Shown in pieces: positions 50,481 through 51,359 of a stretch of 64,000 bases of DNA. Numbering within the stretch: position 1 is the first letter of the stretch; every line of letters begins with the position of its first letter. Under the pieces are notes generated by a model. That model made no database searches, was not told the DNA's origin, and was given only the letters and a program-made list of their open reading frames with translations. The DNA is from Mobula birostris (Eukaryota): NCBI RefSeq assembly GCF_030028105.1, contig NC_092381.1, positions 64,258,505 through 64,322,504 on the forward strand, written 5' to 3'. The position numbers and the translations under genes are program-made.

Positions 50481-50800
50481 CTGATTGTGTTGTACTTCAA
50501 ATGTCTGTAGACCTCTGCTTCAGTATTTTCAATGACGACTCCTCACCCGTACTATCTTCTCACAGCCCTCCTCGGGTAGGGAACTACAAAACCGAGATCT
50601 TTTGAACGAAAATAGACCTAATTTCTGTCTTTGAGGCCAGATTTGCAGACAATACAAAGGTAGATGGAGGAGCAGTCAGTGCTGAAGAAGCATTGAGTCT
50701 GCAGAAAGACTTGGACAGATGAGGAGAACTGAAAAAGAAGTGGCAGGTGGAATACAGTGTAGAGAGGTATTTGGTCATGAATTTTGGTAGAAGGAATAAA

Positions 50801-51061
50801 CTTACTTACCGAAGCCCATCATCCCTACTAGGGCATAGGCTGCCAACAGCAGCTCCCCAGAATGCTCTGTACTTGGCCAGTTTTTCAAGTTGTTTCTAGA
50901 TTTAGCAATCTTTTAGGTGTATCCTTCCTCACACAGGATTGAAGTTCTTGAAGCTTCTGTCGGCATTTCTATAGCTCTGGGATTTTGCGGAATGGGCTTG
51001 CTAGCCCCATGTCCAACCTCTTCCAACCACAGCCAGGATTGTGACTGTCCATGATGGAGTT
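50801..51061 (-). mobile_element. RTE-associated SINE with a decayed twister ribozyme at its 5' end
   Basis: TSD AGAAGGAAT(A/G)AA (50789-50800, 51062-51073); (GTAA)n tail; 5' AACTCCATCATGGACAGTCACAATCCTGG...GGAAGAGGTTGGACATGGGGCTAGCAAGCCCATTCCGCAAAA. Confidence 0.7.
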
Positions 51062-51359
51062 AGAAGGAATGAAGGCATAGACTATTTTCTAATCAGAAAA
51101 CAAATTCAGAAATCAGAGGTGCAAAGGGAATCGGCAGGTCTAGTGTAGGATTCCCCGAAGGTTAGCCTGTGAAAGGATTAACATATAAGGAGTGTTTGAT
51201 AGCACTGGGCCTGTACTCGCAGGAGTATAGAAGACTGAGGGGATCTCATTGAAGTCAATCAAATATTGAAAGGCCTAGATAGAGTGGACATGAGGAGGAT
51301 ATTTCCAATAGTGGTGGACAGAGGGCACTGCCTCAGAATACAAGGATATCCCTTTAGAA

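Follow-up and report, generated by a model that had tools for sequence, protein, structure and literature searches.

A short, internally deleted RTE derivative in Mobula birostris with an RNA 5' end likely set by twister-type self-cleavage

The window analyzed here, a 64,000-nucleotide stretch of Mobula birostris contig NC_092381.1, contains a single copy of a short retroelement, which lies on the minus strand from position 51061 to 50801 (261 nt) and begins with the bases AACTCCATC. The insertion is bounded by a 12-bp TSD with one mismatch, or 13 bp when one ambiguous T is included. On the minus strand, the 5' TSD occupies positions 51061 to 51072, and its last A doubles as position 1 of the element, the first A of AAC; the 3' TSD occupies positions 50788 to 50799. 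The element itself is composed of four parts, all read on the minus strand: a decayed twister-type head without P3 and without the 5' strand of P1 (51011 to 51061), in which the base predicted to come just after the cut is position 1; the remaining 5' untranslated region (UTR) of a parent RTE, as far as a deletion junction at parent nucleotide 142 (50921 to 51010); the final ∼110 nt of that parent, comprising the end of its open reading frame (ORF) and a 3' hairpin (50814 to 50920, with the hairpin placed by eye at about 50814 to 50840); and a (GTAA)n tail (50800 to 50809). These coordinates confirm the initial annotation, which had described a 261-bp minus-strand insertion with a 12-bp, once-mismatched TSD and a (GTAA)n tail. 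The same annotation held that the insertion splits an older repeat, and indeed the decayed RT frame of the host repeat, which spans 50639 to 51160 on the plus strand, runs on across both sides. By its motifs, this host repeat appears to be CR1-like. A search for the empty site with the host repeat gave matches that spanned its downstream part only.

The head of the window copy matches the central twister motif at 11 of 16 positions, and two of the differences, at head positions 16 and 27, are CpG changes that preserve pairing, just as had been annotated. Nonetheless, G13, C26, and G30 (Osa-1-4 numbering) are altered in this copy, and 1 nt is deleted. It is very likely dead, since G13 and G30 are positions that tolerate no change in the available text of PMC5113685; the copy had already been considered probably inactive. 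An Rfam search of the window alone, with matches accepted up to an E value of 10, returned no twister. Private changes in the linker have also given this copy a stretch of ∼9 nt (51019 to 51027) that complements its TSD and start (51058 to 51066, minus strand), by chance or by a template-switch mutation.

A search of the 4.0-Gb M. birostris genome with the element gave at least 2,361 candidates, the 40 that were scored being 74 to 78% identical, and a query with the 3' end gave at least 3,505; both counts are lower bounds. The 30 loci that were retrieved have their start in common and unrelated flanks. With 40 scored candidates at this level of identity and flanks that are unrelated, the match of the window insertion to a family is beyond chance, and the family is real. 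Its window copy consists of parent nucleotides 1 to 142 joined to the parent's last 110 nt, with the ORF deleted, and the family is an internally deleted, noncoding, high-copy form, ∼250 nt long, of a Perere-3-like RTE LINE. Mean non-CpG divergence from the majority sequence is ∼10% for short copies and 12.7% for long ones, so the family is old; it looks extinct. The corresponding value for the window copy is 17.6%. The short element occurs twice in the same orientation at one locus, 1.2 kb apart (L016:279-529 and 1501-1731), and in two single copies (L010:1441-1500 and L145:495-620) the head is partly duplicated in tandem at the 5' junction.

Copies with longer 5' parts lead into the start of an APE domain. 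Queries with ORF parts returned 21 candidates for APE and 90 for RT in the same genome. Twelve long loci were retrieved, all of them with the head and seven with the tail region, and eight cover 832 to 987 of the 1,000 amino acids of a single-ORF APE-RT-DUF6451 protein. The long parents are decayed. Homologues of the parent protein occur in Schistosoma, gastropods, and fishes; a search with a short C-terminal peptide found no match. The parent is a single-ORF APE-RT (RTE-type) LINE, its clade name being taken from this architecture and the Schistosoma homologues.

Nearly the same head was present at 2 of the 41 metagenome RTE loci that had upstream DNA. Both of these elements, L154 and L162, are intact, and both have C-G at the base of P4. 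The L154 head is identical to the best M. birostris heads at 49 of 52 nt; the frame of this element stays open for 1,031 amino acids, and its contig starts precisely at AAC and stops at (GTAA)n. A TSD lies at the AAC of L162. The twister head is patchy among the related RTE loci (2 of 41 upstream regions, L149 to L224). In a quick tree with no named Repbase reference included, the nearest metagenome sequence to the M. birostris parent was L150 (SH-aLRT 94), the 5' end of which differs. Another locus, L161, gave a weak HDV-like match with an E value of 0.28. These observations suggest that 5' ribozyme modules are lost or swapped. A scan of 20 metagenome loci at Rfam gathering scores found no ribozyme, and no relative was found in viral contigs.

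With the Rfam twister-P1 model, heads matched at 7 of 20 loci (25.7 to 35.7 bits) and at 6 of the 62 candidates scored genome-wide (39 to 42.6 bits), and 0 of 14 control genomes gave a match. The RF03160 gathering score of 67.2 bits, the cutoff of a model that takes in P1 and P3, was reached by no copy (25.7 to 42.6 bits for M. birostris copies, 40.2 to 41.6 bits for L162 and L154). Given these scores and the P1 that it lacks, the head is not filed as canonical RF03160. We aligned the heads of 105 loci and left out those that scored below 60, which gave 102. In the majority head, none of the four P2 pairs is lost, nor are the T1 and T2 pseudoknot pairs or the two catalytic positions; the positions of low identity in the alignment are CpG pairs. 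All eight positions named in the accessible part of PMC5113685 have the expected base (offsets +6 and +3). G13, G30, A46, and G48, described there as intolerant of change, are majority-conserved across the 102 loci. The initial annotation had proposed comparing genome-wide copies with the twister model, and the comparison thus came out divided, with the pseudoknot pairings kept and the gathering score never reached. The first 29 nt of the head are kept exactly at seven places in the genome.

Among the 13 core pairs of the majority head the sole break is an A·G at the base of P4, which leaves that helix with three of its four pairs. The A is present in 78 of 88 copies and the G in 79 of 93. An exact-match search of the M. 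birostris genome found the A form seven times and the canonical C form not once; a canonical C14 subfamily was accordingly rejected for this genome. In L031 and L036 an A-U replaces the A·G, T being present in 4 of 93 copies. As described in the available portions of PMC11662667, twisters that were tested tolerate P1 defects and any base at −1, and P4 mismatches other than those at pair 4 are tolerated on average. Nested folding, a model without pseudoknots, gave P2 and P4 probabilities near zero in three of the four intact-core copies of this genome and of at most 0.28 in the fourth, with a competing helix preferred over the active fold; by the same model, likewise without pseudoknots, P4 in L154 had a probability of 0.54 to 0.64 and L162 folded poorly. 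In a covariation test of 17 distinct, hand-picked heads, 205 of 500 shuffles scored as high, a test to which neutral decay of copies leaves little power. Judged by its sequence, the head resembles a P1-less T-variant twister and likely worked like one.

When 29 loci were chosen by their 3' end alone, the alignment started at head position 1 to 3 in 20 and at position 1 to 10 in 22, so the tabulated 5' ends are not scattered. By eye, the rest comprise one 3' end of a long element, two copies that start at position 1 and have internal deletions (L056 and L066), one true truncation with a TSD (L052), and three of ambiguous type. Complete copies, defined by a head start within 4 nt and a tail that was found, numbered 67; a TSD was detected in 23 of these, the other 44 having none that could be scored. 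In a scan of ±15 nt, 22 of the 23 TSDs ended no more than 2 nt from position 1, compared with 2 TSDs at scattered offsets among 260 mismatched flanks. This agrees with the annotated proposal that the element begins at the predicted 3' cleavage product of a twister. One or two leading A's of the head fall inside the TSD in 13 of the 23 copies, and 4 nt do so in L162. Microhomology at the 5' junction is the likely reason.

Bases upstream of the head are unconserved. Among 64 copies, excluding those picked by Rfam, the −1 base was T in 20, G in 10, A in 20, and C in 14. The element has no 5' strand of P1 of its own, and in the same 64 copies the flanks supplied 1.91 of 4 P1 pairs against a background of 1.98. 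Selection for flanks that form P1 is ruled out, as the pairing equals background.

The deletions that removed the ORF are clustered at two hot spots, at which 139 to 147 nt of the parent 5' end and 102 to 116 nt of its 3' end are kept, or 215 to 223 nt and 60 to 70 nt, respectively. Two junctions are common to 15 and 13 copies, the first of these classes being favored by the query, and many others are singletons. In all, 23 classes of retained length were found among 67 copies, and no diagnostic non-CpG bases common to a junction class were found. Duplexes predicted between the 5' UTR and 3' end of 19 elements averaged −28.4 kcal/mol for cognate and −25.1 kcal/mol for noncognate pairs (permutation P = 0.00025), a difference that is confounded by GC content and is reversed in 5 of the 19, in which the cognate pair is weaker than its own noncognate mean. 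One helix, predicted for L149 to L196 and the M. birostris parent, joins 5' UTR nucleotides ∼118 to 146 with the last ∼105 nt and lies on AQD codons near the C terminus. It shows compensatory changes, by eye, in L154 and L157, and both of its strands are kept by nearly all junctions. By these predictions, the two ends of an RTE RNA in this group seem to pair with each other.

Three other explanations of the element have to be weighed. It is extremely improbable that the element is a standard Pol III SINE to which an RTE tail is joined and whose head resembles a twister fortuitously. Loop L4 is slightly B-box-like, but the word in question, at position 17, has two mismatches and there is nothing more: the element has no A or B box at zero mismatches and no B box at one, no tRNA was found in 11 of 11 loci, and there was no tRNA or 5S match. 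Moreover, the parent LINE itself begins with this head, and intact RTEs elsewhere bear the same one, by which the Pol III reading is contradicted. The initial annotation was correct in denying the element a Pol III promoter and in placing it in a nonautonomous, RTE-tailed family with a twister-type head. Its label of SINE does not hold; neither a tRNA, 5S, or 7SL head nor Pol III boxes, which make a SINE in the strict sense, were found, and the element is a parent RTE minus its ORF, that is, a bipartite element or SIDE. A more serious alternative, though in our judgment an unlikely one, is that the head derives from a twister that had already become a vestige in this lineage, and that an internal Pol II promoter or a cellular nuclease set the 5' end at an inherited boundary. 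A fixed 5' end would also be expected from an internal promoter, and this counts against an explanation by self-cleavage. The A·G at the base of P4, the competing helix in nested folding, the lack of enrichment in P1 pairing, and the subthreshold Rfam scores are all consistent with a vestigial head. Set against these are the majority conservation of all four intolerant positions, the coincidence of the boundary with the predicted cut site, the tolerance of twisters to P1 and most P4 defects that is described in the available part of PMC11662667, and the fact that, of the core pairs, the A·G alone is broken.

It might also be that only the long parent RNA was cleaved and that short copies, never themselves templates, were made repeatedly at insertion by an RT that jumped past the ORF at the base of a stem between the 5' and 3' ends. 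The many junctions clustered at two hot spots, the absence of class-diagnostic bases, and the predicted end-to-end pairing would fit such jumps. The tails speak against them, however: CTAA tails were present, by eye, on 13 of 16 long 3' ends, which were collected with a single query and may belong to a single subfamily, and on none of 67 short copies, and GTAA tails were present on 0 of 12 copies of junction class C compared with 9 of 28 in classes A and B (Fisher P = 0.037). Junctions common to 15 and 13 copies, and short candidates in the thousands compared with 21 to 90 for ORF parts, are likewise difficult to reconcile with an origin anew at each insertion, and we regard it as improbable. 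Since the tails are unlike those of the long parents and class C lacks GTAA, the short templates likely spread on their own, their independence from the long RNA being inferred from the tails. The TSDs, tails, and shared junctions of spread by target-primed reverse transcription (TPRT) are all present. Tails within one junction class vary, and GTAA, GAA, GAT, and CCAA were all observed.

We conclude, with a probability of roughly 0.7, that this insertion represents a decayed copy of an internally deleted, Perere-3-like RTE derivative and that twister-type self-cleavage set the 5' end of that derivative's RNA. The two-part anatomy, the parentage, the register of the twister, the TSDs at the predicted cut site, and the lack of Pol III boxes were observed. 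The remainder of the pathway is proposed as follows. A copy read through within a host transcript would fold into the double pseudoknot, with the host flank supplying the −1 base and, by chance, a partial P1. The RNA would then cut at N^AAC and free an RNA of ∼250 nt, the 3' end of which would be recognized in trans by the endonuclease-reverse transcriptase of the parent. Insertion would follow by TPRT, often with microhomology of one or two A's at the 5' junction. Pairing of the 5' UTR with the 3' end may have placed the deletions at the two hot spots, after which several short masters would have spread independently. Copies of the family thus likely excised themselves from host transcripts with no need of a promoter, a behavior that is known for a blood-fluke retrotransposon.

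A more far-reaching version is possible but, as a whole, short of probable. It would make the family a promoterless, twister-processed short retroposon whose thousands of copies, in an animal genome of 4 Gb, exceed those of its parent by one to two orders of magnitude and that used a minimal twister without P1 or P3 and with A·G at the base of P4. The short form, a stem minus its ORF loop, would have arisen repeatedly by end-to-end pairing, and a few intact-core copies may still cut host transcripts today. If self-cleavage is correct, ribozyme-headed deletion derivatives extend from HDV and R2 to twister and RTE and to a high-copy family, and an RNA cut out as 5' and 3' ends would need no promoter. 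Kojima's suggestion that 5' ribozymes explain why few LINE clades spawn bipartite parasites would become testable. Natural intact-core copies exist in the genome, so a test needs no reconstruction. Four of them lie at C32:6611073-6611127, C22:33151157-33151211, and C6:171621475-171621503, all on the minus strand, and at C35:16330915-16330969 on the plus strand; the first has, by eye, U at −1 and three of four P1 pairs. Heads of this kind are missed by the Rfam cutoffs.

The family may already be catalogued with its head unrecognized, and the supplement of PMC11662667, covering about 1,000 organisms with many fishes among them, may list this head. The initial annotation knew of no such family described in elasmobranchs, and no twister-headed short RTE was found in a literature search confined to published papers; the link between twisters and RTEs and the existence of ribozyme-headed deletion derivatives were already in print. 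In the passage available of PMC7761336, truncated, catalytically competent twisters are described as a conserved feature of RTE-superfamily elements at their 5' end, with a citation to work in preparation, and that passage gives no data, taxa, or short forms. The portions available of PMC6765202 and PMC13725137 contain nothing specific. The supplement of PMC8501958 gave no match to the first 13 nt of the head and none to shark or coelacanth names.

The closest autonomous counterpart is Perere-3, an RTE-clade element from Schistosoma mansoni that has T-variant twisters at its 5' end, for which cleavage was shown (PMC8501958). According to the available text of that paper, Perere-3 shares with the family a 5' twister, a TSD beside the AA of the cut site, a 5' strand of P1 that comes from the flank, and a GTAA tail, and, like the family's parent, it has a single APE-RT ORF. 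The P2, L4, and L1 of the family and the next 15 nt match the S. mansoni twisters (PMC8501958, Table 1). Perere-3, however, is an autonomous element; in its twisters P3 is present, the P4 base is paired, and the linker is 5 nt long, whereas the family has no P3, an A·G at the P4 base, an 8-nt linker, mostly noncoding 250-nt forms, and cleavage that is predicted. Among nonautonomous elements, RTE-N1_Lch, RTE-N2_Lch, RTESINE, and WALLSI3 are bipartite RTEs of 250 to 290 bp composed of an RTE 5' end and 3' end, and it was proposed that 5' ribozymes may account for this group (PMC5786205). RTE-N2_Lch, with 214 plus 70 bp, resembles junction class C here, with about 220 plus 67 (PMC5786205). No twister is named in the available text for these elements, and their likeness to the family is one of description, not of Repbase sequences. 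The R2 SIDEs of Drosophila are, like the family, nonautonomous and composed by internal deletion of a 5' self-cleaving ribozyme and a LINE 3' end, but their ribozyme is HDV-like and they are site specific for rDNA and rare, as described in the portion available of PMC3414825. The family, in contrast, is twister-type, RTE-derived, dispersed, and present in thousands of copies. The HDV-bearing elements of trypanosomatids are reportedly akin to R2 SIDEs in joining a 5' ribozyme to a LINE 3' end. Twisters on RTEs, ribozyme-headed SIDEs, and bipartite RTEs have all been published.
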